Shown here one piece after another: positions 5,663 to 64,000 of a stretch of DNA of 64,000 nucleotides. The notes under the pieces are model-generated. The model saw only the letters and a list, made by a program, of their open reading frames with translations. It did no database searches and was not told the origin of the DNA. The stretch comes from an uncultured Gammaproteobacteria bacterium (GTDB taxonomy: Bacteria; Patescibacteriota; Patescibacteriia; Magasanikbacterales; UBA922). The stretch is taken from NCBI GenBank assembly GCA_964345045.1, contig CAYFPM010000001.1, forward strand, positions 375,632 to 439,631. The letters are read 5' to 3'. How positions within the stretch are numbered: position 1 is the stretch's first letter; every line of letters begins with the position of its first letter. Both the position numbers and the translations under genes were made by a program.

Positions 5663-5759
5663 AAGTATTTAGCTATATTAAACAGATTTGTTGGGTATAT
5701 CTTGACAAGTCTGTTTTTTTTTGATAAGTTCAAATATCGCATAGATGTGGAGGTCAAAT

Positions 5760-6260
5760 ATGCGTATCGTAGACATGTTTAGTTTTCTGTTGTTCCTTTT
5801 GGGGCTTTGTAAAAAAAGTCCGGTACCTCTGTGGTACTTGGAGATCAAGCTCAAAAGACAAAAATTCACTCCTAAGACCCCCGAATGGGCAAAGTGGACG
5901 CCCCTTGAGCCCTGCTGGCATGAGACTGGTAGAGAAAAACGGGGAGCCATAAGTTTCCGAATCAGGGGGGACTTGATTCTGAGGAACGATGGTACGGCCG
6001 TGATCTTGAGCAGAGTTTCTAGTGCTAGGACACTAGAGCTGTGTGCTCTTCACACCGGGCAAGGAGTCCCGAGTGGAGAAGAAGCCAGACTGCGTGACCT
6101 AGCCAAAGATATTTTTTCTCGAGAACTATCTGAAGTGACAATCTCACCAAATCTCACGGCAGCCGGGATCTTTCGATTTGTTCGAGAGGAAAATATGTTT
6201 TCTGCCTATGTAAATGGCATTGCTTGTGAATATCGCCAAGCACGCCAATACGGTCAGTAG
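5760..6260 (+). CDS. GC-rich hypothetical secreted/lipoprotein-like protein (foreign-looking cassette gene)
   Basis: GGAGG 6 nt upstream of ATG 5760; TTGACA-17-TAAGTT promoter at 5702-5730; N-terminal hydrophobic segment ending LLGLC; local GC about 50% vs ~33% in flanks. Confidence 0.4.
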   Translation: MRIVDMFSFLLFLLGLCKKSPVPLWYLEIKLKRQKFTPKTPEWAKWTPLEPCWHETGREKRGAISFRIRGDLILRNDGTAVILSRVSSARTLELCALHTGQGVPSGEEARLRDLAKDIFSRELSEVTISPNLTAAGIFRFVREENMFSAYVNGIACEYRQARQYGQ

Positions 6261-6369
6261 AGTTCCTTGTGTGATCTCTCCACAAAAAAATCACCCAAAA
6301 TCAAAAGAACACCATTATATGGTGTCTTTTTGTATTTGGAATGGAGTGGCTCGGATCCTACTCGAGCCG

Positions 6370-6582
6370 CTAGTGGAGGGGATCGCTGGGGTTGGGACCA
6401 GCTTGATTCTCTCCGAGATGGAGACAACGTAGCTTCCAAGTATTGAAGGCATCTTCTTGCTCCGTCATCGGAGCGGCTCTTCCAGTTCGGAAGTATCCTT
6501 TGCCCTGGAGAGCCTTTCTTATGGTAGCAGAATCGGTTCGAGGAGGTGCCTGCCTTTTTTGGGTAATGGTAGCTTGAGCCAT
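6370..6582 (-). CDS. GC-rich hypothetical small protein (70 aa), convergent with the 5760 gene
   Basis: AAGGAG 9 nt upstream of ATG (minus strand). Minus-strand TTGACA-17-TATAAG promoter lies at ~6625-6660. Confidence 0.3.
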   Translation of the reverse strand: MAQATITQKRQAPPRTDSATIRKALQGKGYFRTGRAAPMTEQEDAFNTWKLRCLHLGENQAGPNPSDPLH

Positions 6583-6709
6583 CCGTGTCTTCTCCTTCTG
6601 GAATGTCTGTGACCATCTGGTCAATTTCCTTATACCAAAAATTATATCACTTGTCAAGAGTATCGGCAAGCTTGAAAGAAAAAATTGCCTATGTTAAGGT
6701 TTAGGCATT

Positions 6710-7795
6710 ATGAATAATGCAGACAAAGAAAAACTGTTTAGATTGGCCTTTTGGGGCTTCTTTTTTGTACTCCTGTTTAACGAAGCTTTGCCTTTTGTAG
6801 CTATTGTTTTGGCAATTTATCTGTTGTACAAAAAATCCAAAGGACAAAATCCAATCCCACCAAGCTTGGGCAAACACTTGCCAGAAGATTGGTATTTAAA
6901 AATTAATAATTATTTTGGTGCCAAAAGTGCCAGAGAAGAAAATATTATGGAAACAATAAGACCAAAAAGTGTAAAAAAATTTAAAGGAGTGGTATTTTTG
7001 GCAATCGTACTCATTGTAATTTTGCCGTTTGTTGGTTCTTTTTTTACGATCATTGATGCTGGTGAAACCGGGGTAAGAAGTTTTTTTGGAAAAGTAAGAG
7101 ACAAAGAATTTTCTTCTGGTTTCCACCTAAAAAATCCTTTGGAAAGAGTTACCAAGATGAATATACGAACCCAAGAGTACACCATGAGTATTGCTCACTC
7201 CGAAGGCAAAAGAGTTGGTGATGATTCTATTGCTGCTCTTACCAAAGAAGGTCTGCAAGTAGATTTGGACATTACCGTATTGTTTAGCTTGGTAGAAAAC
7301 AAAGCTTCCGATGTGTACAAAGAAGTTGGCTTAAGTTACGAAGATGTAATAATTAGACCGCAAATAAGAAGTACGATTCGCGAGGTAATCGCCGAATACC
7401 AAGCCAAAGATATTTATTCGGAAAAACGTCAAGAAGCAGCACAAAAGATTTTGGAAAAATTGAAAAAAAGCGTAGATCCTAGAGGGGTAGAAGTAGAAGA
7501 TGTACTACTTCGAAATGTGCAGTTGCCATCTGGCTTGGCCGAAAGTATCCAAGAAAAATTACAAGCCGAACAAGATGCAGAAAGATATAACTTTGTGCTA
7601 GAAAAAGAAGCCAAAGAAGCCGAGAGAAAAAGAATAGAAGCCGAAGGGCAAAGAGATGCTCAGCAAATAATTAATCAAAGTTTGACTCCTAGATATTTGG
7701 AATTCTTGTACATAAATAGTCTAAAAGACAGAGAAGGCACTATCTATGTCCCAACAAATTCGAACAATGGTTTGCCATTATTTCGTGGTATCTAA
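6710..7795 (+). CDS. SPFH/band-7 domain protein (prohibitin/HflK/C-like)
   Basis: TM anchor then SPFH core (GETGVRSFFGKVRDKEF...LTKEGLQVDLDITVLF...) and C-terminal coiled-coil EAERKRIEAEGQRDAQ. Alternative start at METIRPK (~6949). Confidence 0.75.
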   Translation: MNNADKEKLFRLAFWGFFFVLLFNEALPFVAIVLAIYLLYKKSKGQNPIPPSLGKHLPEDWYLKINNYFGAKSAREENIMETIRPKSVKKFKGVVFLAIVLIVILPFVGSFFTIIDAGETGVRSFFGKVRDKEFSSGFHLKNPLERVTKMNIRTQEYTMSIAHSEGKRVGDDSIAALTKEGLQVDLDITVLFSLVENKASDVYKEVGLSYEDVIIRPQIRSTIREVIAEYQAKDIYSEKRQEAAQKILEKLKKSVDPRGVEVEDVLLRNVQLPSGLAESIQEKLQAEQDAERYNFVLEKEAKEAERKRIEAEGQRDAQQIINQSLTPRYLEFLYINSLKDREGTIYVPTNSNNGLPLFRGI

Positions 7796-7938
7796 AAATT
7801 GACTTGTTGATACTGGCTTGATACAATAGGCGCGCAACTAGGGTGAATAATCTAAGATGGATAAAACATCGTCTGTTGCTGTTTGGATTAGTGTCTAATC
7901 CAAAAAAAGGTCGGTTTAATAAAAAACAAGTACAATTT

Positions 7939-10367: not shown

Positions 10368-10392
10368 ATCCGGCCGAATAGGTCGGGTTTTT
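10368..10392 (+). terminator. rho-independent terminator
   Basis: ccggccgaataggtcggg hairpin followed by TTTTTTG. Confidence 0.5.
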
Positions 10393-10447
10393 TGTTTGAC
10401 ACAAAACTACTCTAAGGCTACGATATACAATGAATTGAATTTAATTC

Positions 10448-11845
10448 TTGAAAAATATGAGCAATAGAACTATAGGACTAGAATTTGAATTTTTGGCAAT
10501 AAATCCAAACACTGGTTTGGCTATTAATAGAAATCAAATCAAAGCTATTTGGAAAGACTGGGCAGAAAAAGAAAATATAGAGCTGTACAAAGACAAGGGT
10601 ACGGGGGAGCCGGTAGGAGTAATCTACAAACTAGAAGATGGTAGAGAATTTACCATTAATACCGATGGGGGAGTTTGCTTGGTAGAATTTAGCTTTGCTC
10701 CGTTTGCCAACCTACACAAATGCAAAGAAGTACTAGACAAAGTAGTGGCTGAATTTTTGGAAATTGGTAAAAAACATGATGTTGCTCTTATATCTCATGG
10801 AGTACAGCCAAAAACACCGTGGTACTACCCAGATCTCAAAACCGAAAAAACTTGGTACCGTAGTTTTGCCAAAATGCCATACTTTCAACTATGGCACGAC
10901 CAGTTTCACAATATCGCAGCTCACCAAGCCTGTATCGGTATGGAATACAAAGAGATTATTCCAGTTATAAATGCTATGAATGCTTTGGGCGGAGCCACAG
11001 TAGCACTCTTTGCCAATAGCTCTATTCAAGAATACGAAGTAAGTGATTACCACGAAGAAAGGGAGTTTCGTTGGGAAAGATTGGTGGAAGGTTACGAAGA
11101 AATAATTCAAAATATCCAGGGCATTCCCAAAAAGCCGTTTACCTCTTTTCGGGATTATCTAGAGTACAACTGGAGTGTATATTTGCCAGCAGCTTTTCGA
11201 GGGGCAGACTTGCACAATTTTAAACAAAGAAAAACTATTAAAGAATTTTTGTTTGGCGCCGATCAGACAAGTTTCAATATTACCCAAACCAAACCAGACA
11301 AAATCACTCCAAACATTACCGACGCCAACATGCTAAACATGTATATTTGGATTCAAGCTAGACCAAAATTATTTTTTGACAAAAGCTTAGAGCTTACAGA
11401 TTTGCTAAAAGCTTTTGAAGAAAACAAAATTGATGAATTTGCCAGTGCAGAGGGAGCAATTGACAATTTGTATGCCGAAAACAGAAACATTGCGTCTCAG
11501 CCCTGGGAAGACAGGTTGGCTGGGGCGGCCTACTGCCTAGGGATTATGGAAAATATAGAAAAGGTAGAAGAGCTGGTAAAAGAAAAAACTTGGGAAGAGT
11601 GGCGAGCTTTGCGCCTAGAAACAATGAAATCTAGTATGGAAGTGGATGAAGCTGTAGAGGTGATTGAAAAACTTTTGCCACTGGCAAAAGAGGGATTAGA
11701 AAAAAGAGGATTGGGTGAAGAAGTTTACCTGGAGCCACTTTTTGAAAGATTAGAAAAAAAAGAATCGCCGGCAATGCGAGCGATTCAAGATTTTGAAGAT
11801 AAAGGATTGGATGATTTTATAGAGTCTAGGATTATAAAGGTTTAG
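10448..11845 (+). CDS. carboxylate-amine ligase / glutamate-cysteine ligase family-2-like protein (tentative)
   Basis: N-terminal IGLEFEF motif typical of GCS2/YbdK-type ligases; 465 aa; no other motif confidently recognised. Confidence 0.35.
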   Translation: MKNMSNRTIGLEFEFLAINPNTGLAINRNQIKAIWKDWAEKENIELYKDKGTGEPVGVIYKLEDGREFTINTDGGVCLVEFSFAPFANLHKCKEVLDKVVAEFLEIGKKHDVALISHGVQPKTPWYYPDLKTEKTWYRSFAKMPYFQLWHDQFHNIAAHQACIGMEYKEIIPVINAMNALGGATVALFANSSIQEYEVSDYHEEREFRWERLVEGYEEIIQNIQGIPKKPFTSFRDYLEYNWSVYLPAAFRGADLHNFKQRKTIKEFLFGADQTSFNITQTKPDKITPNITDANMLNMYIWIQARPKLFFDKSLELTDLLKAFEENKIDEFASAEGAIDNLYAENRNIASQPWEDRLAGAAYCLGIMENIEKVEELVKEKTWEEWRALRLETMKSSMEVDEAVEVIEKLLPLAKEGLEKRGLGEEVYLEPLFERLEKKESPAMRAIQDFEDKGLDDFIESRIIKV

Positions 11846-12630: not shown

Positions 12631-12831
12631 AGTGTTTTAGTTTGACAAGTTAGGGATTACTTTACATTAAAATAAAGATTAGAACAATGGAGCGCAGCGT
12701 TCCTTTTTGTTTATTTTTTCAAATTACTTTTTACAACAACTTGCACTACTTGACAGTTTGCCTGCTTTCATGATAATCTGCAATGTCCCTTGGACCGTGC
12801 CTTAATATAGAGGTGCGCATGGAGGTACAAA

Positions 12832-13353
12832 TTGATGAAAAAAATCATGGTGAAGGCCTTCGCCATGGCGGCCTTGACCTTGGCTATATACTTCGCCTTC
12901 GCATGGTACTTCGGTACTGTGGAGTCCCTAAGTGTGCACTCCCTCGGGAGGCGTTACTTCGAGGGGGTCTCCACCTCCATCGTGGTATTCTGCGGCTTTG
13001 TGTTTATCTTCTTTCTAGACGATTTCAACACATTTGCCGCCTGGGTAATTGCTGTTTTTACTCCCTTTGGGAGCGTCTGTTCCTGGTTCCTGTTCAGAGT
13101 ATCAGACGAAATGCCCTTAGGTCCCTTAGGAGGTTTCCTCTTTCTTCCGAGTTTCTCCCTTCTCCTAGTCGGGATTTTATCCGATTACGTCGTTAGAAAG
13201 GAGAAGGATGATCAGTACATATCCTTCATGCTTTTGTCTGACAAGGGCTATGTGCTGAAAGAGGTGTCGTATAGGAAGGTGTTCCTCGTCTACCTCGTCG
13301 AGGTGGCGAGCATCTCGATTCCCATATTCCTCCACCTGAGAAGTCTTAGGTAG
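12832..13353 (+). CDS. GC-rich hypothetical 4-TM membrane protein (foreign-looking cassette gene)
   Basis: GGAGG 7 nt upstream of ATG; GC about 50%; hairpin gagtgcttttttt after the stop (~13425-13450); TTGACAAGT at 12651. Confidence 0.45.
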   Translation: MMKKIMVKAFAMAALTLAIYFAFAWYFGTVESLSVHSLGRRYFEGVSTSIVVFCGFVFIFFLDDFNTFAAWVIAVFTPFGSVCSWFLFRVSDEMPLGPLGGFLFLPSFSLLLVGILSDYVVRKEKDDQYISFMLLSDKGYVLKEVSYRKVFLVYLVEVASISIPIFLHLRSLR

Positions 13354-13594
13354 GATCTACAAGGAGAGCCCACTCGTGTTTGAACGTACCATTCATCGTC
13401 AGACACGGGCGGGCAGACACATTCACTCTATGGAGTGCTTTTTTTATTATAAAAAATATTCTATCACGTTCCAGAATATGCGATGTTTGCTGGTGATATA
13501 ATAGCGAACGAAGTGAGCCAACACCAGCAAATATGGGTGGAGCGACCAACGGGAGCGAAACTGCATATTCTGTGTTATACGCTGTGATTATGTT

Positions 13595-14173
13595 TCAACC
13601 TCTATATAAAGATATTCCCCAAATCAAAAATGGAATCCACATTGATATTAAGAGAAACTGTTTGATGAGAAAATATTCAGTTTCGCGGCGTTTCAAACAT
13701 AAATAAATAATTGCAATAAATGGTAATAATATACCTAGCTCAATTAACAAATTTCGATATAGATAATAATTTTGCCAATCGAGCTTACCTGCGCTTGGCA
13801 ATACTCCAAAGGGAAGGGTTAATTTGCCACTATAAAATGGCCATAGATACGCTTTTGGGAAAACTCCTACCAGTAAATCCAGAAAAAGGTGTGAGAAAGA
13901 AGCAGTAAAAAGTTGAAAGCTTTTATTTAATAAATTTCTGTTTTTTTTGTATTTAAGGAATAATACACTTAGAATTGGCAAAATTAGTACAAATCCAATT
14001 GAGTGAGAATGTTTAAGTATTGTCTGAGAACCTAATATCCACAATGCAATATAATTTATATCAGGGGAAAATGCTAAAAACATTAGCCATACTGACCATT
14101 TCCAAGAATTGCTCTTTTTAGAAAGCCGCGAAACAGATAGACCTATAATGCTATGGCCGATAAATGATGACAT
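13595..14173 (-). CDS. membrane-bound metal-dependent hydrolase (DUF457/YdjM-like)
   Basis: IGHSIIG and HSHSIGF motifs with multiple TM helices. The track ORF extends to 14254 through a GC-rich leader; the MSSFIGHS start is preferred. Confidence 0.55.
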   Translation of the reverse strand: MSSFIGHSIIGLSVSRLSKKSNSWKWSVWLMFLAFSPDINYIALWILGSQTILKHSHSIGFVLILPILSVLFLKYKKNRNLLNKSFQLFTASFSHLFLDLLVGVFPKAYLWPFYSGKLTLPFGVLPSAGKLDWQNYYLYRNLLIELGILLPFIAIIYLCLKRRETEYFLIKQFLLISMWIPFLIWGISLYRG

Positions 14174-14448
14174 AATTTTTTGATAAGCACGGCGGACGAC
14201 TGGCGGGCACCGCCGCCCATTGATTGCAATGGAGCGAAGCGACATTGCGGTCAACGTTCGCGTGTATCAGAAGTGCCGCCCCTCATCATCGCACAAAACT
14301 TTGATTTATCACAGACTCTGTTGAATGCCCCAGGCTTTGGTTTCAGCTAGCGGCATTTGGGAGAGGGGAAAAGAAGTACCTTTAAAATCAATAAACAAAT
14401 TTCTTTTTCCCGAACCTGCTATACGCTGTTAGTCGATGTTGGGTTGAT

Positions 14449-15107: not shown

Positions 15108-15932
15108 TTGATATGTATTATGAAATCTCTAAATGATATTGTAACCCGAGAAATGGAATTAGGCAATTATAGTCAAAAAACAATCAAAACCTATCTTGGG
15201 ATATACCAAGACCTATACAAAAATTTGGGCAAACCCCCAAGAGAAGCAAGTATGGATGAACTAAAAGATTATATCCATCAAAAAACAAAGAAAAATTTAT
15301 CTTCACAAACTATAGCTTTGTATGCCAATGCCATAAATTTTTTGTATATCTCGGTATATAAGAAAAAATCATACGAAAAATTTAAAATGCCTAAAAAGAC
15401 GAAGAAATTACCAGTAGTTTTGAGTAAAAAAGAAATCGAAACAATTGCAGCTCAAACCAAAAATTCAAAACACAAGCTAATGATTTTGTTGGCCTATGCT
15501 GCCGGACTCAGGGTAAGTGAAGTTACCAATTTGCGTGCAAAAGATATAGAATGCGACGAAGCACTGCTTACAATTCGTCAGGGAAAAGGCAAAAAAGATC
15601 GAGTTACAGTATTAAGTAATAAATTAATTGAAGAATTAAGAAGTTTAACTATAAAAAAGAATTCAGATGATTATTTGTTTGAAAGTGAGAGAGGGGGTAA
15701 ACTTACAAATGCAACCCCGCAAAAAGTATTTCAAAAATGTTTGACTAGTGCGCAAATAAAAAAGTCGGCCACCTTTCATAGTCTGCGTCATAGTTTTGCT
15801 ACGCACTTACTAGAAAACGGTGTAGATGTTCGATATGTCCAAGAACTACTCGGTCATGCCAATATTCGTACTACTCAGATATATACCAAAGTAACCAACC
15901 CAGCCATAAAAAATATCCAAAGTCCCTTATGA
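15108..15932 (+). CDS. tyrosine site-specific recombinase (XerC/XerD-like integrase family)
   Basis: C-terminal HSLRHSFATHLLENGVDVRYVQELLGHANIRTTQIYTKV (R...HxxR...Y catalytic signature); N-terminal SAM-like core-binding domain; 4-nt overlap with mnmA. Confidence 0.8.
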   Translation: MICIMKSLNDIVTREMELGNYSQKTIKTYLGIYQDLYKNLGKPPREASMDELKDYIHQKTKKNLSSQTIALYANAINFLYISVYKKKSYEKFKMPKKTKKLPVVLSKKEIETIAAQTKNSKHKLMILLAYAAGLRVSEVTNLRAKDIECDEALLTIRQGKGKKDRVTVLSNKLIEELRSLTIKKNSDDYLFESERGGKLTNATPQKVFQKCLTSAQIKKSATFHSLRHSFATHLLENGVDVRYVQELLGHANIRTTQIYTKVTNPAIKNIQSPL

Positions 15933-17095: not shown

Positions 17096-19123
17096 ATGTT
17101 TATAGAAAAAGGTCTAAAATCAAAATCAGAAAGGTTATTATTTCTAGGCTTAGCTTTTATCACGTCGTTTCTTTACGATTTTTTGGTTTGGGATCAAAAT
17201 CTAGGGCTTGGTTTTGTAGCTTTTATTTTAGTTTCAATACTTTTGTTTGTACTCTGCGTGGGCTTGGTAAAAAAACAAGGTTTGCGTTGGTCACTGGTTT
17301 TACTTTTGCCAATCACTGTTATGGGTTTTGACATTCTTGTATATAACAACCAATTGGTTACCATTGGTGTGCCTATATTTGTTGTAATTTTGTTATTGAT
17401 TTTTTTTAGTCTATATACTCTCAAAAATCCAAACAGATTAAAATTTTCTTTTTTGGGAGTGCCTGTTTTAAAAAGTGCTGATTTGCCCATTGCCAAGTGG
17501 GGCAAAATTTACAAAGATATCTTTGGCAAATCAGAAGATAGTGAAAAGAATATTTTTGGTAAAATATTTTTGGGTTTTATTATAGCTTTACCTATTTTGT
17601 TTATTTTTGGAATACTTTTTGCCAAAGCCGATGCCTTGTTTGCAGATTGGTTAAATAATTTTTTAAGCATAGAGCCGGTAGACTTTTGGCGTATTATTAG
17701 AACCGTTGCTATCACTCTCTTGCTCGGTGGACTTTTTTACGTAGTTATTGACAATAACTATCATCTAAAAGAAAGACTATCTTCGGTAAAAAAATTTGAC
17801 GGCCTAATAATCAGTATTGTTTTGGGAAGTATAAATTTATTATTTGCTGTATTTCTTTTTTTCCAGTTTAAGTATTTGTTTGGTGGAGTAGCGTTTGTAC
17901 TTGATAATGGATTAAGTTTTGCTGAGTACGCCAGAGCTGGTTTTTTTCAATTGTGTTGGGTGGTAGCTCTGTCTGCTCTAATGCTTATAATAATCTACCG
18001 ATCATTTGTAGCTCACAAGGGAGCTTGGTCAGTATCAATACTTCAAACTTTATTGATCGTTCAGGTTATGGCTGTGGCTGCTTCGGCTCTAAAAAGAATG
18101 AATTTATATCAAGCAGAATTTGGCTATACAGTTTTGCGTTTGTATGTAGAATGGTTTATTTATTTTACCTTGATCATACTCGCTTTGGCTGGTTTTAGTC
18201 TGCTGGCTAGATTTAGTTTCCGTCGGTTTTACCATACTTCTGTGTTAATGGGTGTTTTGGCATTTTGTTTGGTTGCTTCTGTAAATGTTGATTTGGTAAT
18301 TGCCAAAGAAAATGTCGCTAGAAGTATAAATCAAGATAAAGCTTTGGATTTGGATTATTTAAAGTCATTGTCATCAGACACCATGCCGGCATTAATGCCT
18401 TTGTTTAAAGTCGATAACTTGCAAAAGCTTGATTATTATCAAAAATTGCAACTAAAAGGGATTTTGGATGAAATAAATAATAATTTTGGAAAAAGAGATT
18501 CTTGGAGAGAAATAAATTTTGGAGCTGTTAAGAGTCAACTATTGCTTCTGCAAATTCCAGAAACAAGCACAAAAAGTTTAAATAATTTGCAAAATAAAAA
18601 TATTTCTTTTAATGAAGAATTTTCACAGTTAAGCAAACAAACGGTACTAGCAAATTGTCCATACGATTTGATGAATAAATTTAATTTAGACAATAGTGTT
18701 GGTAATTTTAGTTTTTCTTGTGTTGAAAAAAAAGACGCTGATCAGGTTTATACTATTATTTTGAAGAAACCTGTATGGCTTTTCCCAAATATTCTAGATT
18801 CTAAAAACACCTTAGAAGATCCTGAATTTTTAAAAACTTCTTATTTGGTTTATCGAAACGACAATGTTTCTAAACCAATTTTTCAAAAGGATTTTGAGTT
18901 TGATATTAAAATAGTGTCCAACAAAGACTATTACAAATTGGCAGATTACTTTGCCCCTCAATTTGTAGGTATTAGAAATAGCGATAACTATATGTCGAAG
19001 AATAATTTTTTCTTGCAAAAAGATGGTTCTATTTTGGAGTCAGATTTTTATAGTTTGGATAATTACTTATATAGCTTTACTTTTTCTAATAATATTTTAA
19101 TCAAAAAAAACATTACAAAATAA
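17096..19123 (+). CDS. large polytopic membrane protein with C-terminal soluble domain, function unknown
   Basis: About 10 predicted TM helices in the first 400 aa, then an N/K/S-rich domain. Confidence 0.45.
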   Translation: MFIEKGLKSKSERLLFLGLAFITSFLYDFLVWDQNLGLGFVAFILVSILLFVLCVGLVKKQGLRWSLVLLLPITVMGFDILVYNNQLVTIGVPIFVVILLLIFFSLYTLKNPNRLKFSFLGVPVLKSADLPIAKWGKIYKDIFGKSEDSEKNIFGKIFLGFIIALPILFIFGILFAKADALFADWLNNFLSIEPVDFWRIIRTVAITLLLGGLFYVVIDNNYHLKERLSSVKKFDGLIISIVLGSINLLFAVFLFFQFKYLFGGVAFVLDNGLSFAEYARAGFFQLCWVVALSALMLIIIYRSFVAHKGAWSVSILQTLLIVQVMAVAASALKRMNLYQAEFGYTVLRLYVEWFIYFTLIILALAGFSLLARFSFRRFYHTSVLMGVLAFCLVASVNVDLVIAKENVARSINQDKALDLDYLKSLSSDTMPALMPLFKVDNLQKLDYYQKLQLKGILDEINNNFGKRDSWREINFGAVKSQLLLLQIPETSTKSLNNLQNKNISFNEEFSQLSKQTVLANCPYDLMNKFNLDNSVGNFSFSCVEKKDADQVYTIILKKPVWLFPNILDSKNTLEDPEFLKTSYLVYRNDNVSKPIFQKDFEFDIKIVSNKDYYKLADYFAPQFVGIRNSDNYMSKNNFFLQKDGSILESDFYSLDNYLYSFTFSNNILIKKNITK

Positions 19124-21617: not shown

Positions 21618-22043
21618 ATGATTGTCCATAGAAAACTTATGAAAGGCTATAATTTTTCGCAAAATGGCAACATACAATACCCAGATTACGGGAAGATTTG
21701 CCCGGCCACATTTCATATAGATCTTTCTGGCTGCCAAGCAAAATTTTTGCAGAGCAGATCTGTAGAGCATTTTTTCGATAGGGTGTGCCATCTGTTAGGG
21801 GTACAAAGGAGGGGGGATGCTCTTTTGCTGTATTTTGACGAAAGTCCGGATTTCAAAGGTTACAAAGCTGTACAAATTTTATCCAAGATATTTATCACCG
21901 GTCATTTTTGCCAAAACAAAAATTCTGTTAGCTTGGATATTTATTCGTATAGAGATTTGGATATCTATAGGATAGGAGCTTGGTCCAAAAAATATTTTGA
22001 TGCCAATAACCTAGCTATTCAGGATTTTACCAGATTGGTATAG
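21618..22043 (+). CDS. hypothetical protein
   Basis: 141-aa ORF, Cys/His-containing, no motif; weak. Confidence 0.3.
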   Translation: MIVHRKLMKGYNFSQNGNIQYPDYGKICPATFHIDLSGCQAKFLQSRSVEHFFDRVCHLLGVQRRGDALLLYFDESPDFKGYKAVQILSKIFITGHFCQNKNSVSLDIYSYRDLDIYRIGAWSKKYFDANNLAIQDFTRLV

Positions 22044-22045
22044 AT

Positions 22046-22888
22046 CTATAGTGGGCCAAATATTTTTTTAAATCTATTTTTTATTTTTTGAGCATCTTTT
22101 GGATGTTTTTTTAATACCAATTTTGCTTTTATCTTTCTTTTTACTAATTCGATAATATAATCTGGGTCAATCTCATTGTAGCTAGGAAATTTTTTATAAA
22201 TCTCGTCTATAAAATTTACAGTTTCTTGATCCAAGGTAATCGTCAAAATATAATCATCTATAACTGTAAAACTTTTGTTTCGCTCTTTTTTAAAAGATTC
22301 TCCATCTGGCAAAAGAAAGTATTTTTGTCTGGGATATTTTTCCCAGATTTTTTTACTATATCGGTCGAGTGGGGTATTCCCTCCCACAATCATATAATCA
22401 TCACTTACTAGTTTGTGAAAAGAGTTCAAAAACTGATCATTTTGTTTTTGGATAATTAGATCAAACCAAGTATGAGGACAATAGCTAGTGGCATAAGTTT
22501 CTGTAGAGTCATGTGCCATAGCCAAAAGTACCTGCGCCCAAGAACCATCCAACGTAACCATATCACTAAACTGCCAACTGATTTTTTGTTTTTCGTCTTT
22601 TGGCAAAATACTTTTTAAATAATTCAAATCAAAATAAACACTCTCTGCACGTTCGGCAAATTTGGCCAGGTTGAGTATCCAAGGTATGCGCAAAGAATAA
22701 GTTGTTTTGTTTTTTATAATAACGGCGTCTTGTTCTAATTGTTTCAAGACCTTGTATACAGATTGAATAGAAACCAAAATATCGTTTTGTCTACATTTTT
22801 GGTGAATTGCTTTGGCACTAAGGTTTGGCCTTTCTGACAGGGCATGAATTATACAGTTTTCTAGTTGTAGATTTATACCCAGTAGCAT
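22046..22888 (-). CDS. winged-helix (HTH) domain protein with uncharacterised C-terminal domain
   Basis: N-terminal LSAKAIHQKCRQNDILVSIQSVYKVLKQLEQDAVI resembles a wHTH; rest unknown. Confidence 0.4.
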   Translation of the reverse strand: MLLGINLQLENCIIHALSERPNLSAKAIHQKCRQNDILVSIQSVYKVLKQLEQDAVIIKNKTTYSLRIPWILNLAKFAERAESVYFDLNYLKSILPKDEKQKISWQFSDMVTLDGSWAQVLLAMAHDSTETYATSYCPHTWFDLIIQKQNDQFLNSFHKLVSDDYMIVGGNTPLDRYSKKIWEKYPRQKYFLLPDGESFKKERNKSFTVIDDYILTITLDQETVNFIDEIYKKFPSYNEIDPDYIIELVKRKIKAKLVLKKHPKDAQKIKNRFKKIFGPL

Positions 22889-23017: not shown

Positions 23018-23569
23018 ATGAATATAAGGAGACCCCCCACAAGGGGGAAATACGATCACACCTCTCTCGAGGTAAGAGATTCAAATATTCAGGGACTGGG
23101 GCTTTTTGTAACTGCCAACATCGAGCTTGGCACAAAATTGTCACCTTTTGATGGTGTTATCTATAGAGCAGATTCTGATTATCAACTTCCCACAGAAATC
23201 AGAGGTTTGCCTATCCAAATTGGAGCTGGGCTTGTACAGATGGCCACCGGTTATGCTCTTTTTGTTGCTCATAAGTGCAACACCCCGAGTGCTATAATCC
23301 AGCTAGATGCTGAGACAGGTTTTTTTTGGGTAGTCGCTCGGATAAATTTGTCGGCACAAGCAGAAGTAACCATTGATTATGGTACGATTCAGTATCCAGA
23401 TCATTTTACGCTTTATCCGGCTTATACCAAATGTAAGTGTGGCGATGCCAACTGCAGAGGTAATAGGTTGGGATTTGAATCTATGCCAGTGCCACTTCGT
23501 CGTAGTTATCGAGACGAAGGTGCTATCCCAGATTGGCTTTGGGGGTTGCAAAAAAATGACGAGACTTAA
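23018..23569 (+). CDS. SET-domain protein (putative protein-lysine methyltransferase)
   Basis: GLGLFVTANIELGTKL (GxG SAM pocket), AHKCNTPSA (NHSCxPN-like), EVTIDYG (ELxxDYG-like), post-SET CKCGDANCRG; local GC about 45%; AGGGAG SD. Confidence 0.6.
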   Translation: MNIRRPPTRGKYDHTSLEVRDSNIQGLGLFVTANIELGTKLSPFDGVIYRADSDYQLPTEIRGLPIQIGAGLVQMATGYALFVAHKCNTPSAIIQLDAETGFFWVVARINLSAQAEVTIDYGTIQYPDHFTLYPAYTKCKCGDANCRGNRLGFESMPVPLRRSYRDEGAIPDWLWGLQKNDET

Positions 23570-23668
23570 TGTTCTTTTTGCAAAGGTTTTTGGGTCAGAG
23601 GCAGACTGACCCCCAGAATTCATTAACAAATTGTTTAACAGATTAAAAAGTGTTATACTTTTTTTATT

Positions 23669-26779: not shown

Positions 26780-27538
26780 ATGGAACAAATTTTGCTCCCA
26801 ACAAAAATCGAATTCCAAGAAACCGATAACCCAAATGTGGGTAAGGTTGTAATTACTCCATGTCATCAAGGATATGGTACTACTCTTGGTAATGCCCTGC
26901 GTCGAGTATTGTTGTCTTCTTTGCCAGGAGCAGCAGTTGAATCTGTAAAAATAAAAGGCGTGCAGCATGAATTTTCGGCTGTAGAAGGTGTAAAGGAAGA
27001 CATGATTCAAATTATTTTAAATCTAAAGCAGTTGGCTGTTAGATCTCATTCCGATGAGGTAGTTACTTTAACCCTTAACAAAAAAGGTAAAGGTGATGTA
27101 ACTGCTGCTGATTTTGAAAAAAATTCTGATGTAGATGTAATTAGCAAAGATCTAAAAATTTGTACTGTTACAGATGCCAATATTAATTTTGAAATGGAAG
27201 TTAAAATTAGCAAAGGTAGAGGTTATGTAACTGTAGCCGAAAAAGAAACCAAAGGCCTAGACCTTGGAACTATTGCTATTGACTCACTTTATACTCCTAT
27301 TAGAGATATCGGTTACAATGTAGAAGCTACTCGTGTAGGAGACGTAACTGACTACGAAAAATTAACTTTGAGAATTGAAACCAATGGAGCTATTTCTCCA
27401 AAAGAAGCTATTTCTCAATCAACCAAAATTTTGATGGATCACTTTGCTATTGTACTAGATGCTGCTACCGAAGGTAAAAAAGAAACAGCAAAGGTAGAAT
27501 CAAAAGAAGAGGAAGAAGAAGTGCCCGCCGACGCCTAG
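26780..27538 (+). CDS. rpoA: DNA-directed RNA polymerase alpha subunit, N-terminal domain only (no alpha-CTD)
   Basis: Alpha-NTD dimerisation/assembly motifs (GYGTTLGNALRRVLLSSLPGAAV); ends after 252 aa with an acidic tail; rplQ starts 31 nt later. Confidence 0.8.
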   Translation: MEQILLPTKIEFQETDNPNVGKVVITPCHQGYGTTLGNALRRVLLSSLPGAAVESVKIKGVQHEFSAVEGVKEDMIQIILNLKQLAVRSHSDEVVTLTLNKKGKGDVTAADFEKNSDVDVISKDLKICTVTDANINFEMEVKISKGRGYVTVAEKETKGLDLGTIAIDSLYTPIRDIGYNVEATRVGDVTDYEKLTLRIETNGAISPKEAISQSTKILMDHFAIVLDAATEGKKETAKVESKEEEEEVPADA

Positions 27539-28690: not shown

Positions 28691-28736
28691 TATTGGATGT
28701 ACGAAATACGAAAAATACGAATTTACGAATAATTTA

Positions 28737-28767
28737 AAACCGACTTGTGTAGACAAGTCGGTTTTTG
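28737..28767 (+). terminator. rho-independent terminator after rpsI
   Basis: ccgacttgtgtagacaagtcgg hairpin followed by TTTTTG; preceded by a tacgaa-type short repeat. Confidence 0.55.
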
Positions 28768-28799
28768 TTTTTGAATGGTGGGAGAGAGTCTCCTTGATG

Positions 28800-29099
28800 T
28801 TATTGGTCTTGAGGTTTGACTGGTCGGCCATCTGGTGAAATTTCTGTAAGGGCTTTTAGCACCTTGGTTACAATGCTTTCGGACATCTCATCGGGTACCC
28901 AGTTTCCTTGCCATTTCCCACCTGCAAAAAGCAAACCAGCGTGAAAAACTACTTTTTCATCTGCGTCAACTTGTTTCAGATCGGCAATATGGGTGTCGCC
29001 CTCTCGCCAGCAGCAGGTGACTTGGTACCTGTTGCCCTCTTCTTCAAAACTCCAGGCAAAGCCTCCGTGGTCATTGTACTCAAGATCTTCTGGTTTCAC
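28800..29099 (-). CDS. GC-rich hypothetical protein (~99 aa; start uncertain)
   Basis: Start placed at GTG 29099 with a GGGAG SD. The track ORF runs to 29366, but a minus-strand terminator (caactcccaaagagttgttttttt, ~29140-29165) sits upstream, so the long form is unlikely. GC about 47%. Confidence 0.3.
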   Translation of the reverse strand: MKPEDLEYNDHGGFAWSFEEEGNRYQVTCCWREGDTHIADLKQVDADEKVVFHAGLLFAGGKWQGNWVPDEMSESIVTKVLKALTEISPDGRPVKPQDQ

Positions 29100-29230
29100 A
29101 TTTTCTCCCACTTGATTGTAATGAAAGTAAAAATTTTTTGCAATAAAAAAACAACTCTTTGGGAGTTGCTTAATTTTTGGATTGTCCTGACGAACTTGGC
29201 TTCTGTTGTAACTGCAATTCTCTAGTTTTG

Positions 29231-29590: not shown

Positions 29591-29689
29591 GTGGTCAATC
29601 TCCTGTATAAACAAGATTAATTGAGTTATAAGTTTGTGTCAAATAATCCAACTTGAAAATTAGCTATTTTTAGAATAAAATTAGACTAT

Positions 29690-36629: not shown

Positions 36630-36689
36630 AAGTTTTTTTAGATAATTTTACTTTTATTACTTGACATAGATTGAAATTTATGATATTTT

Positions 36690-37135: not shown

Positions 37136-37147
37136 ATTTACAAAAAT

Positions 37148-43592: not shown

Positions 43593-44006
43593 GTGTCTAT
43601 GACACCCAAAGAAATTGAGAGAAATAGGATTAAATTCCTTTTGGATGTTCTTTCTGTTGATAAGCCCAATGGTTGGAGGGTTCTAGAGATCCCAAAGGAC
43701 AAAAGAGGAAATTGGCTTTGCCAAAGTCCGGGTTCTCCATTTACAAACTTTTCACAATTAAATCCAATATTGAGTGATTTGAGATTTTTTGGTTATCTTG
43801 GTCAAAGAAAATCCAGATCCCCGTGGCACTGGTGGAGGTGGAACCCTTTTACCAAAGAACCTATGGCTGAAAAAAATCCCTATAACGAGGCCTATGCCAA
43901 ACAAAGGAACGCTGCGATTGTAGCATCCAGAGGTAAAAGAGGTGTTCCTTTCCAGGATCCGATTAATTGGAGCCTTATTGATTTTGGGGGAAATAATGGG
44001 GTTTAG
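43593..44006 (+). CDS. hypothetical protein (Trp-rich)
   Basis: Strong AAGGAGG SD 8 nt upstream; 137 aa with SPWHWWRWNPF segment; no recognised family. Confidence 0.4.
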   Translation: MSMTPKEIERNRIKFLLDVLSVDKPNGWRVLEIPKDKRGNWLCQSPGSPFTNFSQLNPILSDLRFFGYLGQRKSRSPWHWWRWNPFTKEPMAEKNPYNEAYAKQRNAAIVASRGKRGVPFQDPINWSLIDFGGNNGV

Positions 44007-60373: not shown

Positions 60374-60377
60374 TTTT

Positions 60378-61290: not shown

Positions 61291-61854
61291 ATGAAATTAA
61301 AATTAACTATCTTGCTTGGTACTGCCAGAGAAGGTAGACAAAGCGAAAACGTGGCCAAGTTTGTAGAAACAGAGGCCAAAAAATTGGATAATGTAGAAAT
61401 TACTTATGTAGATGTAAAGGATCACCCTATGACAGCTACAGTGCCAAACTGGCAACCTGGTTTGGCCGAACCATCTGCTTGGTCAAAAATCGCCAAAGAG
61501 TCTGATGGTTTTATATTTGTAGTGCCAGAATATAATCATAGTTTTCCTGGGGAATTTAAGCTCCTTTTTGATACGGCTTTTGAAGAATATAAGCACAAAC
61601 CAGTAGCTATAGTACCAGTGTCTTCTGGTGGGTTTGGTGGTACTAGACTGGTAGAAACTTTGCAAAATGTATTGATAGAAACTGGGGCGATTCCGGTTTC
61701 TACAGTTTGGAATGTGTCCAAAGTGGGGGATATGTTTGATGAGTCTGGTAAAGTGATAGATGAAAAAGCTTCGGGGAGACTTAAAAAAGTTTTGGATGAA
61801 CTAGTTTGGTTTGGAAGAATTATGAAAGAAGCAAGAGAGAAACAGGTAAAATAA
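61291..61854 (+). CDS. NADPH-dependent FMN reductase family flavoprotein
   Basis: LTILLGTAREGRQSE, FIFVVPEYNHSFPGEFKLLFD flavodoxin-like motifs; terminator aacatctgatgaggatgtt at ~61862. Confidence 0.8.
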   Translation: MKLKLTILLGTAREGRQSENVAKFVETEAKKLDNVEITYVDVKDHPMTATVPNWQPGLAEPSAWSKIAKESDGFIFVVPEYNHSFPGEFKLLFDTAFEEYKHKPVAIVPVSSGGFGGTRLVETLQNVLIETGAIPVSTVWNVSKVGDMFDESGKVIDEKASGRLKKVLDELVWFGRIMKEAREKQVK

Positions 61855-61935
61855 AAAACATCTGATGAGGATGTTTGGATAGTTGGTTTTTCAAGCTTCG
61901 AGGAGATCGTGACCTCCCCGAAGCTTGTAGCTTGA

Positions 61936-62070
61936 TCAGCCTTTTCGGACGTTGCCGCATTTCGTGCAGACGTAGTCCCTGCCGCTTTGGTCATGATCCG
62001 TGTCATCGTAGCAGTTAGTGCAGTACAGCGTGACTGCTTTGTATAGGGCTATCGCGATGAGCTTGATCAT
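61936..62070 (-). CDS. GC-rich small zinc-ribbon protein (44 aa)
   Basis: MIKLIAIALYKAVTLYCTNCYDDTDHDQSGRDYVCTKCGNVRKG (CxxC-x17-CxxC); AAGGAG 6 nt upstream; followed by long hairpin caagcttcgaggag...ctccccgaagcttg. Confidence 0.35.
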   Translation of the reverse strand: MIKLIAIALYKAVTLYCTNCYDDTDHDQSGRDYVCTKCGNVRKG

Positions 62071-62140
62071 TTCTTCTCCTTCGCTCCCAATGTTGTGGGG
62101 AGCTGAGGAGATCTTATTGTATTTTTTTGATTTTGTCAAT

Positions 62141-62209
62141 ATGTATTTAGAAATTAAAAAAGACCTTCGCAATTTAGCACACCTAGAAAAGAAAAAGCTA
62201 TACAAGTAG
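62141..62209 (+). pseudogene. truncated duplicate of the alkD 5' end (22 codons then stop)
   Basis: aaaaaagaccttcgcaatttagcacacctagaaaagaaaaag is about 90% identical to 62858-62900 at the start of intact alkD; encodes MYLEIKKDLRNLAHLEKKKLYK*. Confidence 0.5.
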
Positions 62210-62335
62210 TTTTTTAAGATTGGAAAATGGCACTATGCTGAGGACGTAAATATGTCACAGACAGACGCTTGACAAATGATTAATAACCTTTTATCTTTTA
62301 AGCGGATCAATAGATCCCCATAGGAAGGAGAAATC

Positions 62336-62668
62336 GTGCAAAATCTGGAAACCTCTAGAAAAGATCTGGAGAGTACCTACAAGGCCTACTATAGGGCCCT
62401 CCGGGGGAGAGACCAAAAAGAATCCCTCACGCCGGAGAGATTCATGCAGATCATGGGAGGGGGGCCAAACTCGGGTCAGGAGCTTCGCCTCAAAGGAGGA
62501 GATGATCCCAAGTTGGTCCAGGCCGTAGTAAAGGCCGTTCAGGTCTATACTTCTGCCGTCCAGAGTCACAATGCCTCAGTGGGGGATAGGTACGTCGTGA
62601 ACCTCAATGACCCCGTCTCGCGAGGCCTGGCCGATGACGCACCTGGCCGGTACAGGTACCGACGGTAG
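62336..62668 (+). CDS. GC-rich hypothetical protein (110 aa) on an inserted cassette
   Basis: GTG start with AGGAAGGAG SD; TTGACA-17-TATCTT promoter at ~62269; 10-bp-stem hairpin cccagagtgc...gcactctggg at 62684-62719; GC over 55%. Confidence 0.45.
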   Translation: MQNLETSRKDLESTYKAYYRALRGRDQKESLTPERFMQIMGGGPNSGQELRLKGGDDPKLVQAVVKAVQVYTSAVQSHNASVGDRYVVNLNDPVSRGLADDAPGRYRYRR

Positions 62669-62732
62669 CTCGAATTCAAGAATCCCAGAGTGCATGAATA
62701 ATTTTCAGGCACTCTGGGAGATCGATCATTAT

Positions 62733-62762
62733 TTTGTAAATATAAAAATTCATATTTACAAA
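62733..62762. promoter_or_regulatory. perfect 11-bp inverted repeat upstream of alkD (operator-like)
   Basis: tttgtaaatat-aaaaattc-atatttacaaa. Confidence 0.4.
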
Positions 62763-62840
62763 ATAATAAGATAGTTTAATTTTTTATTTTTTCGTATAGT
62801 ATTTTTCTGTGCTAGTCGAGGTATTTACTTAAAAGTTTTT

Positions 62841-63548
62841 ATGAGTGTAGCAAAAATAAAAAAAGACCTTCGCAATCTAGCAGACCCAGAAAGAAAAAAA
62901 GTTTATGAGTGGTTTTTTAAGACTGGTCGAGGCCAATATGGGGAAGGGGATAAATTTTTGGGAGTAGTGATGCCAAACATTCGTAAAGTTGCCAAAAATT
63001 ATGTAGAAATGGATTTAGAGAATATAGAAAAGATTTTACAATCTTCATTTCACGAAGATCGGATGTGTGCTTTGGTAATAATGACTTATAAATTTAAAAA
63101 AGTTGATGAAAAAGAACAGAAGAAAATTTATAATTCTTATCTAAAACATATAAAAAAGTATGTAAATAATTGGGATTTGGTAGATGTAAGTGCCCATAAG
63201 ATTGTGGGGGAGTATTTGTTAGACAAAGATAGGAATATACTTTACAAATTAGCTAAATCAAAAAATTTGTGGGAAAGACGAGTAGCAATTGTAGCTACTT
63301 ATCAATTTATAAAAAATAAAGAATTGGAAGATACTTTGAAAATATCAAAAATATTGCTAGAAGATAGTCATGATCTAATCCACAAAGCTGTGGGGTGGAT
63401 GTTGCGAGAGGCTGGGAAAAAAGATGTAAAAGTTTTGGAAAAATTTTTGAAAAAATATTATAAAAAAATGCCACGGACTATGCTTCGTTATTCAATAGAA
63501 AAATTCCCAGAAAAAATTAGAAAAGATTATTTGGTTGGTAAGATATAA
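62841..63548 (+). CDS. DNA alkylation repair protein (AlkD/AlkC-like HEAT-repeat glycosylase family)
   Basis: LRNLADPERKKVYEWFFKTG..., WDLVDVSA, WERRVAIVATY HEAT-like repeats typical of AlkD. Confidence 0.7.
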   Translation: MSVAKIKKDLRNLADPERKKVYEWFFKTGRGQYGEGDKFLGVVMPNIRKVAKNYVEMDLENIEKILQSSFHEDRMCALVIMTYKFKKVDEKEQKKIYNSYLKHIKKYVNNWDLVDVSAHKIVGEYLLDKDRNILYKLAKSKNLWERRVAIVATYQFIKNKELEDTLKISKILLEDSHDLIHKAVGWMLREAGKKDVKVLEKFLKKYYKKMPRTMLRYSIEKFPEKIRKDYLVGKI

Positions 63549-63629
63549 AAATTCAATAAAAATCTAGACTGCCAAGGTCTTGATTTTTTTGTTTATTTCT
63601 GGTAGCGTCTCAATTGGAGGTAGTTAGAC

Positions 63630-64000
63630 ATGTGTATTGAAAAGAGTGAGGTTTTGTCGGGTGGGTACCCTATGTTGGCTTATTTGCCTAGGCAAACAAA
63701 CTCTCAGTTTCAAGATCCTCAAAGACTCTTGATTTTTCATGGAGGTATCCCTTGTGCCCCCATGGAGGTTCTAATGCGCCACGCCGCTCATCGGTTGGGG
63801 TATACCAGTCTATGGGTAGGAAGAGGTCGTCAAAGAGAAGAGGCTCTTTGGTTGTATGATTTGGGACAAGCTGCAAATGGCTTGGGTTATGATTCTCAAT
63901 ATTTGCATAGAGCAAGTCACCTCAGTTTCAGCATGGGATCTTGTTTTGCCCTGCGTGCTATTTTGCATTTTGGTGGAGCCAATTCTTTATATGCCCTGCA
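63630..64000 (+). CDS. GC-rich alpha/beta-hydrolase-like protein, 5' partial (runs off window)
   Basis: GGAGG 9 nt upstream of ATG 63630; manual translation MCIEKSEVLSGGYPMLAYLP...LLIFHGG...SFSMGSCFAL (HGG oxyanion and GxSxG-like nucleophile elbow); GC about 50%. Confidence 0.4.
   Translation, partial: MCIEKSEVLSGGYPMLAYLPRQTNSQFQDPQRLLIFHGGIPCAPMEVLMRHAAHRLGYTSLWVGRGRQREEALWLYDLGQAANGLGYDSQYLHRASHLSFSMGSCFALRAILHFGGANSLYAL

Follow-up and report, generated by a model that had tools for sequence, protein, structure and literature searches.

The question raised by this 64,000-nucleotide (nt) stretch of DNA, referred to here as the window, is why a chromosome in which nearly all core genes lack a Shine-Dalgarno (SD) sequence should contain eight short, GC-richer islands in which most open reading frames (ORFs) are preceded by a strong one. 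An earlier note on the same DNA had suggested that these islands represent a recurrent class of horizontally acquired mini-cassettes, possibly an undescribed system with an effector/immunity or addiction role. Our analysis favors a more ordinary answer, namely that small, autonomous transcription units were acquired horizontally on repeated occasions from a single pool of donors that use SDs and are moderately GC-rich, and we would put the probability of this reading at roughly 0.6. Horizontal acquisition is the best reading because the islands are foreign in composition, because the corresponding sites of relatives are empty or hold other cargo where they could be compared, and because island 7 has a duplication scar.

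Based on its housekeeping content (rps/rpl/rpoA, the atp operon, alaS, metG, priA, def/fmt and DciA) and on its sole near relative among GTDB species representatives, a Candidatus Magasanikbacteria metagenome-assembled genome (MAG) with an S9 identity of 65%, the window reads as part of a Candidate Phyla Radiation (CPR)/Patescibacteria, Magasanikbacteria-like chromosome rather than as a mobile element. Its sequence is also found in the ENA PRJEB17505 contig k127_94816 (92.5 kb), and the same proteins are encoded on a 621-kb NCBI contig. Gene starts are those of the public gene calls, checked by eye.

Composition and signals of the islands and the core genes

The GC content across the window is 36.6% (0.366 +/- 0.055 in 200-nt windows). 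When stretches of at least 45% GC are merged, they fall at 5741-6680 (47.0%), 12741-13560 (47.4%), 14061-14420 (45%), 23161-23620 (44%), 28741-29600 (46%), 36681-37160 (46.9%), 61801-62760 (44-49%), and 63601-63980 (46%), and all eight of the islands originally pointed out are thus real GC elevations, even though the range of 45-57% given for them was too generous, as island means lie between 44 and 49% and 56% is reached solely in the ORF at 62336-62668. GC content by itself is not diagnostic, because core genes, among them atpA, atpD and alaS, reach comparable values in places, and what distinguishes the islands is rather a combination of features.

The first of these features is the SD sequence. 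The 65 core genes have a mean GC of 0.362 +/- 0.038, a third-position GC (GC3) of 0.290 +/- 0.043, and an SD duplex of -6 kcal/mol or below in two cases, whereas the eight island ORFs have a GC of 0.49, a GC3 of 0.52, and such a duplex in six cases (Mann-Whitney p = 6e-10 for GC, 6e-6 for GC3, and 9e-4 for SD). The contrast is therefore as had been proposed for the island ORFs and even stronger on the side of the core, where about 80% of genes had been said to lack an SD and 63 of 65 (97%) actually do. Once the starts are refined, an SD of -7 kcal/mol or below precedes 10 of the 11 island ORFs, against a positional background of 10.6% within the islands; the binomial probability of 7e-8, calculated for 9 of 11 ORFs, is optimistic, given that three starts were picked with the SD in view. 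Overall, about ten strong-SD ORFs are spread over eight or nine GC-richer islands. In the core genes, TATAAT-like hexamers (at most one mismatch) cluster in the final 10 nt before the start codon, with 23 matches in 18 of 64 genes against a background of about three per 5-nt bin farther upstream, and it is possible that core genes are largely leaderless or have very short leaders. If so, the missing core SDs would be explained.

The second feature is the autonomy of the units. In the three island-near regions scanned, perfect TTGACA -35 boxes are found at 12750, 36661, 62139 (minus strand), and 62269, and all four head island units; promoter-like matches overall were not enriched over shuffles. 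Most units are bounded by their own terminator hairpin, all sit between native transcription units, and no native gene is interrupted. The view that the islands carry TTGACA promoters and private terminators consequently holds for the perfect -35 box of four units and for the hairpins of most, but does not extend to an excess of promoter-like sites.

The third feature is a shared dinucleotide signature. The pooled islands differ from the core with a delta* of 102, the 95% range of equal-sized core samples being 78, and this difference goes beyond local GC content, as GC-matched core segments (45% GC) retain the native pattern (rho of 1.22 for GC, 0.92 for GA/TC, and 0.83 for AT), whereas the islands (46% GC) show values of 0.95, 1.11, and 0.96, respectively. 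Two disjoint sets of islands have a mutual delta* of only 41, and in a leave-one-out comparison 7 of 8 islands are nearer to the remaining islands than to the core. A further island, the ninth, which is independent of these and lies about 1 kb upstream of the window with three SD-led ORFs, is likewise nearer to the islands (57) than to the core (132). The islands of relatives gave no clear match to this signature. Taken at face value, the signature indicates a single donor lineage or a single type of donor, and one donor pool would account for it. GC, GC3, SD use, and a dinucleotide signature beyond that of GC-matched core bear out what the earlier note had described as a consistent foreignness in composition and translational signals.

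Junctions in relatives and the duplication at island 7

The relatives available for comparison were metagenome loci anchored on alaS together with the Magasanikbacteria MAG, while a scan anchored on S9 yielded mostly Bacteroidota and one useful CPR relative. Automated SD scoring in these relatives, taken as the minimum over candidate starts, had about 30% false positives and is too noisy for quantitative use. Gene order is kept as mnmA-alaS-(GtrA)-infA-rps...rpsI-flippase-GT4-GT2. Between rpsI and the flippase gene, one relative (L105) has 90 nt holding a terminator and a promoter only, the window has about 1 kb with the two ORFs of island 5 (I5a and I5b), a second relative (L015) has about 1 kb with a DUF218 gene of 46% GC, and a third (L101) has about 1 kb with a 248-amino-acid (aa) orphan of 47% GC behind a perfect TTGACA-17-TATAAT promoter. 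Furthermore, alaS directly adjoins GtrA in both L015 and L105, where the SET-domain gene of island 4 (I4) is absent, and fmt and def are adjacent in L015, meaning that the junction of island 6 is empty there. At all of these places, the window has an island between genes that are neighbors in a relative. Island proteins gave zero tblastn matches in the loci of the relatives, and the island DNA is single-copy, with zero matches across the window and 1.68 Mb of loci. Because comparable junctions are empty or differently filled, and because of these null results, the islands are best described as lineage-specific insertions, with at least one junction serving, as far as these loci indicate, as a recurrent landing site. 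Syntenic conservation of the island ORFs in all relatives, which had been named in advance as an outcome that would speak against a foreign origin, was not seen at the three junctions compared, as these were either empty or filled with other cargo.

Genes outside the GC-rich class, at 17096-19123 and 21639-22888, also differ from relatives. An AT-rich, SD-less DUF4153 gene lies between mnmA and alaS, which are adjacent in relatives L096 and L105, and between alaS and GtrA the SET-domain gene is accompanied by an S-adenosylmethionine (AdoMet)-decarboxylase-like gene and a gene for a 280-aa winged helix-turn-helix (FUR-like) protein, both AT-rich and SD-less. Gene flux is hence not confined to the GC-rich class, because such AT-rich, SD-less accessory genes vary among relatives as well. 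The rpsI junction has two further peculiarities. In L015, about 150 nt at roughly 65% GC (10376-10530) directly follow the rpsI stop codon and end in a terminator ahead of the DUF218 gene, a stretch that may be a small structured RNA. In the window, the rpsI stop codon and the rpsI terminator are separated by a region (28700-28735) with four repeats of the TACGAA(T/A) type, and a similar TACGAAT repeat cluster is found in the same place in L101 (15965-16040), whose S9 identity is only 53%; these repeats could have a conserved role in regulation or binding.

Island 7 carries a trace of how it was inserted. A decayed duplicate on the plus strand at 62151-62237, 87 nt long, corresponds to the first 29 codons of a DNA-alkylation-repair gene with 78% identity and a premature stop. 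Its partner, at 62854-62940, lies inside the live gene (62841-63548), and the two copies, 703 nt apart, bracket the right-hand unit of the island (I7b). The similarity is seen at both the nucleotide (blastn, 82% over 73 nt, E = 5e-15) and protein (tblastn, 61% over 31 aa) levels, and a repeat search lists the pair as family D1. The duplicate is too long and too diverged to be a target-site duplication, and would fit incoming DNA that carried a homologous gene start with cargo upstream of it. Homology-facilitated illegitimate recombination occurs in natural transformation, and in a comparable manner the start of an incoming homologous DNA-alkylation gene could have recombined within the resident gene, leaving the displaced 5' fragment upstream. 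The other islands have no remnant of a neighboring gene.

On the whole, the islands would be independent and fairly recent acquisitions of short foreign DNA, which settled in intergenic positions between native transcription units. Most of them can be seen as self-contained, "moron-like" units in which a small ORF led by an SD is enclosed by a putative sigma-70 promoter and an intrinsic terminator, and this autonomy would permit expression in a cell that initiates its own genes without an SD. DNA uptake would be the most likely way in, with subsequent recombination of an illegitimate or homology-facilitated kind, and a dedicated cassette recombinase was probably not involved.

Coding status and cargo of the islands

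Whether all islands encode proteins, as had been assumed, was evaluated by testing ORF length against dinucleotide shuffles and coding by codon-position GC periodicity. Predicted folding was expressed as z scores, for which controls from the core ranged from +1.1 to -2.8 and which heterogeneous composition of the segments can inflate. Based on periodicity and/or ORF length, islands 2, 4, 5, and 8 and both units of island 7 (I7a and I7b) were treated as protein-coding.

Island 2 (12750-13447, plus strand) has a TTGACA-16-GATAAT promoter at 12750-12777, the top match of its 10-kb region (11/12), an SD of GGAGG, an ORF at 12835-13353 (172 aa) whose product has about four hydrophobic segments and is hence a predicted four-transmembrane (4-TM) protein, and a hairpin followed by a T-run at 13424-13447. 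Its GC3 is 0.66 vs 0.29 in the core, with a periodicity p of 1e-8 and a length P of 0.004. The protein matched no family in Pfam, PHROG, PADLOC, or NCBIfam. The same island has a fold z of -5.3 with dinucleotide shuffles and -5.1 with codon shuffles, and its transcript is predicted to form many short perfect hairpins, one of which has a UUCG loop. Island 5 (28800-29590, minus strand) consists of two separate monocistronic units, the neighboring rpsI terminator (28736-28765) being native. The first, I5a (29231-29590, minus strand), encodes 119 aa behind an SD of AGGAG and has its own hairpin at 29171-29149, while I5b (28800-29111 or 28800-29099, minus strand) encodes about 100 aa, with a promoter at 29143-29115 and an SD of GGGAG before the GTG at 29099. 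The ORF length P for the island is 0.002, periodicity is significant for I5b (p = 2e-4) and not quite so for I5a (p = 0.06), and the fold z is near 0.

The two units of island 7 are transcribed divergently. On the left, I7a (61936-62070, minus strand) is read from a TTGACA promoter at 62139-62111 (minus strand) and has an SD of AAGGAG (dG -9.6); it encodes 44 aa with a hydrophobic helix and a CxxC...CxxC zinc-ribbon, and has the hairpin at 61892-61927 in common with the FMN-reductase gene. Its GC3 is 0.71 and its periodicity p is 6e-3. On the right, I7b (62269-62719, plus strand) comprises a TTGACA-17-TATCTT promoter at 62269-62297, an SD of AAGGAG (dG -11.2), the ORF at 62336-62668 (110 aa, 56% GC), and a terminator at 62683-62719, with GC at the three codon positions of 0.62/0.42/0.65 and a periodicity p of 1e-3. 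The ORF lengths of island 7 are not significant (P = 0.07 and 0.12). Island 8 (63630-64000, plus strand) is the 5' third of a 318-aa orphan gene of 45% GC with an SD of GGAGG, which is complete in the downstream sequence of the same contig (L001, 12340-13296); its length P is <0.002 and its periodicity p is 4e-5, and the protein has no match in Pfam, PDB, PHROG, PADLOC, or NCBIfam. The fold z values of I5, I8, and I7b lie between about 0 and -1.7.

A further SD-led ORF of 135 aa is found at 43599-44006 (plus strand) between the TP_methylase gene and metG. Its GC content is 41%, and it has the strongest SD of the window (TAAGGAGGT, dG -14.9) and its own downstream hairpin, is a singleton cluster, and matches nothing in Pfam, PHROG, PADLOC, or NCBIfam. 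A 20-nt match shared by the regions upstream of I8 and of this ORF turned out to be merely two similar terminator tails.

Island 4 (23018-23569, plus strand) encodes 183 aa behind an SD of GGGAG (length P < 0.002; periodicity p = 7e-3), and is the one island whose protein is recognizable, as a SET domain. Its match to PF00856 (E = 0.0075, 17.1 bits) is under the cut-off of 22.4 bits, but the motifs GLG, AHKC, EVTIDY, and the post-SET CKCGDANC follow one another in the expected order (GxG, (N)HxC, ExxxDY, CxCx4C), and the protein is collinear with the KMT2 SET and post-SET region in PDB (KMT2D, 4z4p, residues 23-156, E = 0.013). The cargo as a whole is mixed, and includes a putative SET-domain methyltransferase, a 4-TM protein, and a zinc-ribbon peptide alongside small orphan proteins. 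All island proteins form singleton clusters at 90% identity, and searches of Pfam, NCBIfam, PHROGs, and PADLOC returned nothing beyond the sub-threshold SET match, so that the claim that these proteins match nothing recognizable stands for the rest of the cargo and fails for island 4. Single-sequence AlphaFold2 gave unusable models for both I4 and I5a, with predicted local distance difference test (pLDDT) values of 30 and 40, respectively.

The picture is different for three of the islands. Island 1 (5700-6700, 47% GC) is composed of two convergent units sharing a bidirectional hairpin at 6295-6339, with a candidate ORF on each side, namely I1a (5760-6260, plus strand; 166 aa with a hydrophobic N-terminus, SD GGAGG, dG -10.5) and I1c (6370-6582, minus strand; 70 aa, SD AAGGAG, dG -9.7), the latter behind a TG-extended promoter at 6669-6641 (minus strand). 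ORF length is significant here (P = 0.02), but none of the three candidates (I1a, I1b, and I1c) has codon periodicity (p = 0.3-0.9), and its coding status is uncertain. No match to island 1 was found in Pfam, PHROG, PADLOC, or Rfam. Directly upstream, at 3225-5237, lies a TraG/VirD4-type coupling-protein gene (TrwB_AAD_bind, TraG-D_C) of native composition, which may bear on DNA transfer or uptake. Island 3 (14174-14448) is an intergenic element of about 50% GC between hyp168 and the true start of a YdjM gene, and has no credible ORF, the longest open frame being 58 codons (P = 0.81 vs shuffles). The gene for this YdjM-family membrane hydrolase (13595-14173, minus strand; PF04307, 31.8 bits, above the cut-off) is absent from the public annotation, where a 62-aa ORF is called on the opposite strand instead. 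Island 6 (36661-37129, plus strand) is antisense to its neighbors, and consists of a TTGACA-17-TATTTT promoter with TG at 36661-36689, a predicted GC-rich transcript of about 400 nt, and a 14-bp terminator at 37096-37129; its 87-codon, arginine-rich ORF (36810-37073, plus strand) is doubtful, with a length P of 0.29 and no periodicity. A GGAAAGUC motif had hinted at RNase P for this island, yet no RNase P match was obtained at any threshold.

Islands 3 and 6 are probably non-coding by these measures, and it is conceivable that these two, possibly island 1, and perhaps further islands give rise to structured non-coding RNAs, in which case high GC content would come from base pairing and the ORFs and SD-like runs would be by-products. 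In addition to the chance-level ORFs of islands 3 and 6 and the missing periodicity in I1a, I1b, I1c, and the island 6 ORF, such an explanation could draw on the predicted folds, as the plus strand of island 3 forms three hairpin domains with z values of -3.2 and -3.8, island 6 scores -2.85 on the plus strand and -0.8 on the minus strand, and island 1 ranges from -3.5 to -6.4, with a value of -5.7 for 6261-6709 (minus strand) and a minimum free energy structure near the centroid. The independent promoter and strong terminator of island 6, and the several reading frames that are simultaneously open in island 1, would also be in line with it. However, Rfam 15 at the gathering threshold gave zero matches in the window or the two flanking loci (L135 and L001), island 3 included, and relaxing to E <= 10 in small windows gave chance-level matches only, so that these islands belong to no structured RNA family of that release; nor was homologous DNA found in the 1.68 Mb of loci. 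Furthermore, I2, I4, I5b, I7a, I7b, and I8 are significant in periodicity and/or ORF length with correctly spaced SDs far above background, and the z values, inflatable as they are, stay near 0 for I5 and I8. As an account of the islands in general we consider this explanation unlikely, although worth keeping in mind for the islands named. The assumption that every island is protein-coding thus holds for I2, I4, I5, I7a, I7b, and I8, and gives way at 14174-14448, at 36661-37129, and possibly at 5700-6700. Similarly, the short ORFs (44-173 aa) reported for the islands are found in most of them, but 14174-14448 and 36690-37135 have no ORF above chance, and the last island, from 63600 to the end of the window, opens a 318-aa gene.

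Two observations concern RNA polymerase. One of the ORFs of the ninth island (L135, 8302-8682, about 1.6 kb upstream of the window start) encodes 126 aa that match the C-terminal domain of the mycobacterial RNA polymerase alpha subunit (alpha-CTD; residues 247-308, E = 0.0014). The RNA polymerase alpha gene of the window (26780-27538) is only 252 aa long, with the N-terminal and dimerization Pfam domains and without an alpha-CTD.

Weight of the alternatives and comparison with known systems

Several results speak against horizontal acquisition, and the main weakness of this reading is that no donor or homologue was found. A transfer from a sampled lineage, if recent, should leave homologues, but I4 retrieves only itself in a database of 5.8 billion proteins, an exhaustive phmmer search of 1.84e9 representative proteins yielded no genuine homologue for I7b, and the island proteins have no tblastn match in plasmids, phage genomes, or IMG/VR contigs; neither donor-lineage nor mobile-element homologues could thus be identified in these searches. 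The three non-self matches of I7b (Big_1/Invasin and TPR proteins) are spurious and repeat-inflated. Orphan status is firm, with respect to the searches made, only for I7b and I4, the other proteins being orphans on weaker evidence. Presence and absence were compared at three junctions only and with distant relatives (alaS identity <= 74%), and the SD duplex energies stand without this organism's own 16S rRNA tail. Simple horizontal gene transfer, moreover, predicts neither the missing coding signal in islands 3 and 6 and the doubtful one in island 1, nor the unusually stable predicted folds of islands 1 and 2.

The orphan status of the entire cargo and the undetected donors could alternatively mean that the islands are native lineage-specific genes, either fast-evolving or born de novo, whose GC content and SDs are kept by selection, for instance in an SD-dependent translation regime. 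The uniform use of SDs within a genome that avoids them would suit this possibility, as would the fact that AT-rich accessory genes differ among relatives too. Nonetheless, a GC-independent dinucleotide shift together with GC3 values of up to 0.66-0.71 would be hard to achieve in situ under AT-biased mutation, SET is an old and widespread fold and not a de novo one, the scar at island 7 denotes an insertion, and other cargo occupies the same junction in relatives. We therefore regard a native origin as improbable.

We would give even less credit to a single dedicated and undescribed cassette-mobilizing system, whether integron-like or of a new site-specific type, possibly with effector/immunity or addiction cargo. 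What could suggest one is the uniform layout (one small gene equipped with a promoter, an SD, and a terminator), the dinucleotide signature common to the islands, the rpsI-flippase junction acting as a hotspot in three genomes, and the presence of a tyrosine recombinase (integrase) gene at 15120-15932. The recombinase gene, however, adjoins mnmA, and as this neighborhood recurs in a relative, it looks like a housekeeping Xer; no island-borne integrase or associated recombinase was found. The islands have only chance similarities to one another (blastn, tblastx, and blastp), their proteins are not paralogous, and apart from the duplicate at island 7 they share no terminal repeats, hairpins, or att/attC-like sites, so the idea of a family in the sense of a mobile system finds no counterpart in the sequence. 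Specifically, integron cassettes are disfavored by the lack of a shared imperfect palindrome, by islands scattered singly with no arrays, and by a recombinase that is only Xer-like; transposable elements and miniature inverted-repeat transposable elements (MITEs) by single-copy islands in which neither terminal inverted repeats nor target-site duplications were found; and site-specific integrative islands by the absence of an island-borne integrase, by a repeat confined to island 7, and by the lack of any tRNA or tmRNA (ARAGORN) in about 82 kb of contiguous chromosome (the window plus 18 kb of flanking contig). The sole scar is an 87-nt diverged duplicate of a gene end, and neither a short target-site duplication nor an att core. 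As for an effector/immunity or addiction role, models for toxins, antitoxins, immunity, and defense were all unmatched in Pfam, NCBIfam, PHROGs, and PADLOC, and the arrangement does not resemble a two-gene module either, as I5a and I5b are parted by a terminator and a promoter and are no operon pair, and I1a and I1c are convergent. Since every testable feature of a cassette system is lacking, the islands are better read as ordinary, horizontally acquired moron-like islets than as the undescribed system envisaged in the earlier note.

Finally, an assembly or binning artefact, in which reads from GC-richer organisms were joined to this genome, might be invoked given the metagenomic origin of the data and the lack of homologues elsewhere, but is virtually discounted, because the sequence agrees at 100% identity in contigs that two assemblers (ENA/MEGAHIT and Logan) produced from four runs, native genes border every island on both sides, and the flanks are in synteny with relatives.

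If repeated acquisition from an SD-using donor pool is the right explanation, the window would show a streamlined, ultra-small, episymbiont-type genome gaining accessory genes as tiny autonomous units. Two independent marks, the composition signature and the SD, would then provide a cheap and annotation-free way of listing recent acquisitions in SD-less CPR genomes, and might possibly help trace donors or hosts. It would also raise the question of whether SD-led genes are translated in a cell whose own genes skip the SD. The SET-domain protein and, outside the window, the stand-alone alpha-CTD-like protein could be considered candidate host- or self-modulating factors. A bolder version seems doubtful to us. 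In it, the islets would be no random debris of gene transfer but "chromosomal morons" that make up a coherent layer of exchangeable genes in CPR bacteria, supplied by a single donor lineage (which might be the host organism or mobile elements of that host) and translated through an SD-dependent channel apart from the SD-independent or leaderless core translation, with islands 1, 2, 3, and 6 being or containing new large structured RNAs.

With regard to known systems, the islets resemble integron cassettes in being small, mostly single-ORF units with frequently orphan cargo, and differ from them in having no attC, array, or intI/attI, in being dispersed, and in carrying their own promoters, as integron cassettes are usually promoterless. 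The likeness to homology-facilitated illegitimate recombination is seen at island 7, with its one homologous anchor (78%), an upstream junction without homology, and a displaced gene fragment; the difference is that it is deduced from a single scar, whereas the remaining islands have no remnant of a flanking gene. Bacterial SET-domain protein-lysine methyltransferases, which include effectors of intracellular pathogens, are matched by the minimal SET and post-SET protein with the same motifs in island 4, although this protein falls below the Pfam gathering threshold and has no close homologue in the databases searched, and an effector role for it is putative.

Horizontal gene transfer and genomic islands amounting to up to 13% of genome length have been described in Patescibacteria, with competence proposed as the route (PMC12455944). 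The islets resemble these islands in being compositionally deviant, lineage-specific DNA of a streamlined CPR genome, where they account for about 10% of the sequence, but they are much smaller (0.3-1 kb, with one or two genes) and have neither mobility genes nor an identifiable donor. Furthermore, the transfers reported in that study are mostly intra-Patescibacteria, whereas the islets do not look patescibacterial in composition or SD use. The closest parallel might be phage morons, which are defined by a deviant GC content and by their own promoter and terminator, and are inserted as independent transcription units among the conserved genes of a phage (Cumby, Davidson & Maxwell 2012, PMC3594210). 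Like morons, the islets typically consist of one small gene that comes with a sigma-70 promoter and a factor-independent terminator of its own, differ in GC content from their neighbors, sit between genes that are adjacent in relatives, and often carry an orphan. Unlike morons, they are located among the housekeeping operons (rps, atp, and aminoacyl-tRNA synthetase genes) of a CPR chromosome and not in a prophage, have no PHROG, IMG/VR, or phage-genome match, and contrast with their host also in the translation-initiation signal, present in the former and missing in the latter. Islets and morons arising from horizontal acquisition are already well known as a class, and the twist in this case is that the SD marks the foreign genes in a genome that does without it.

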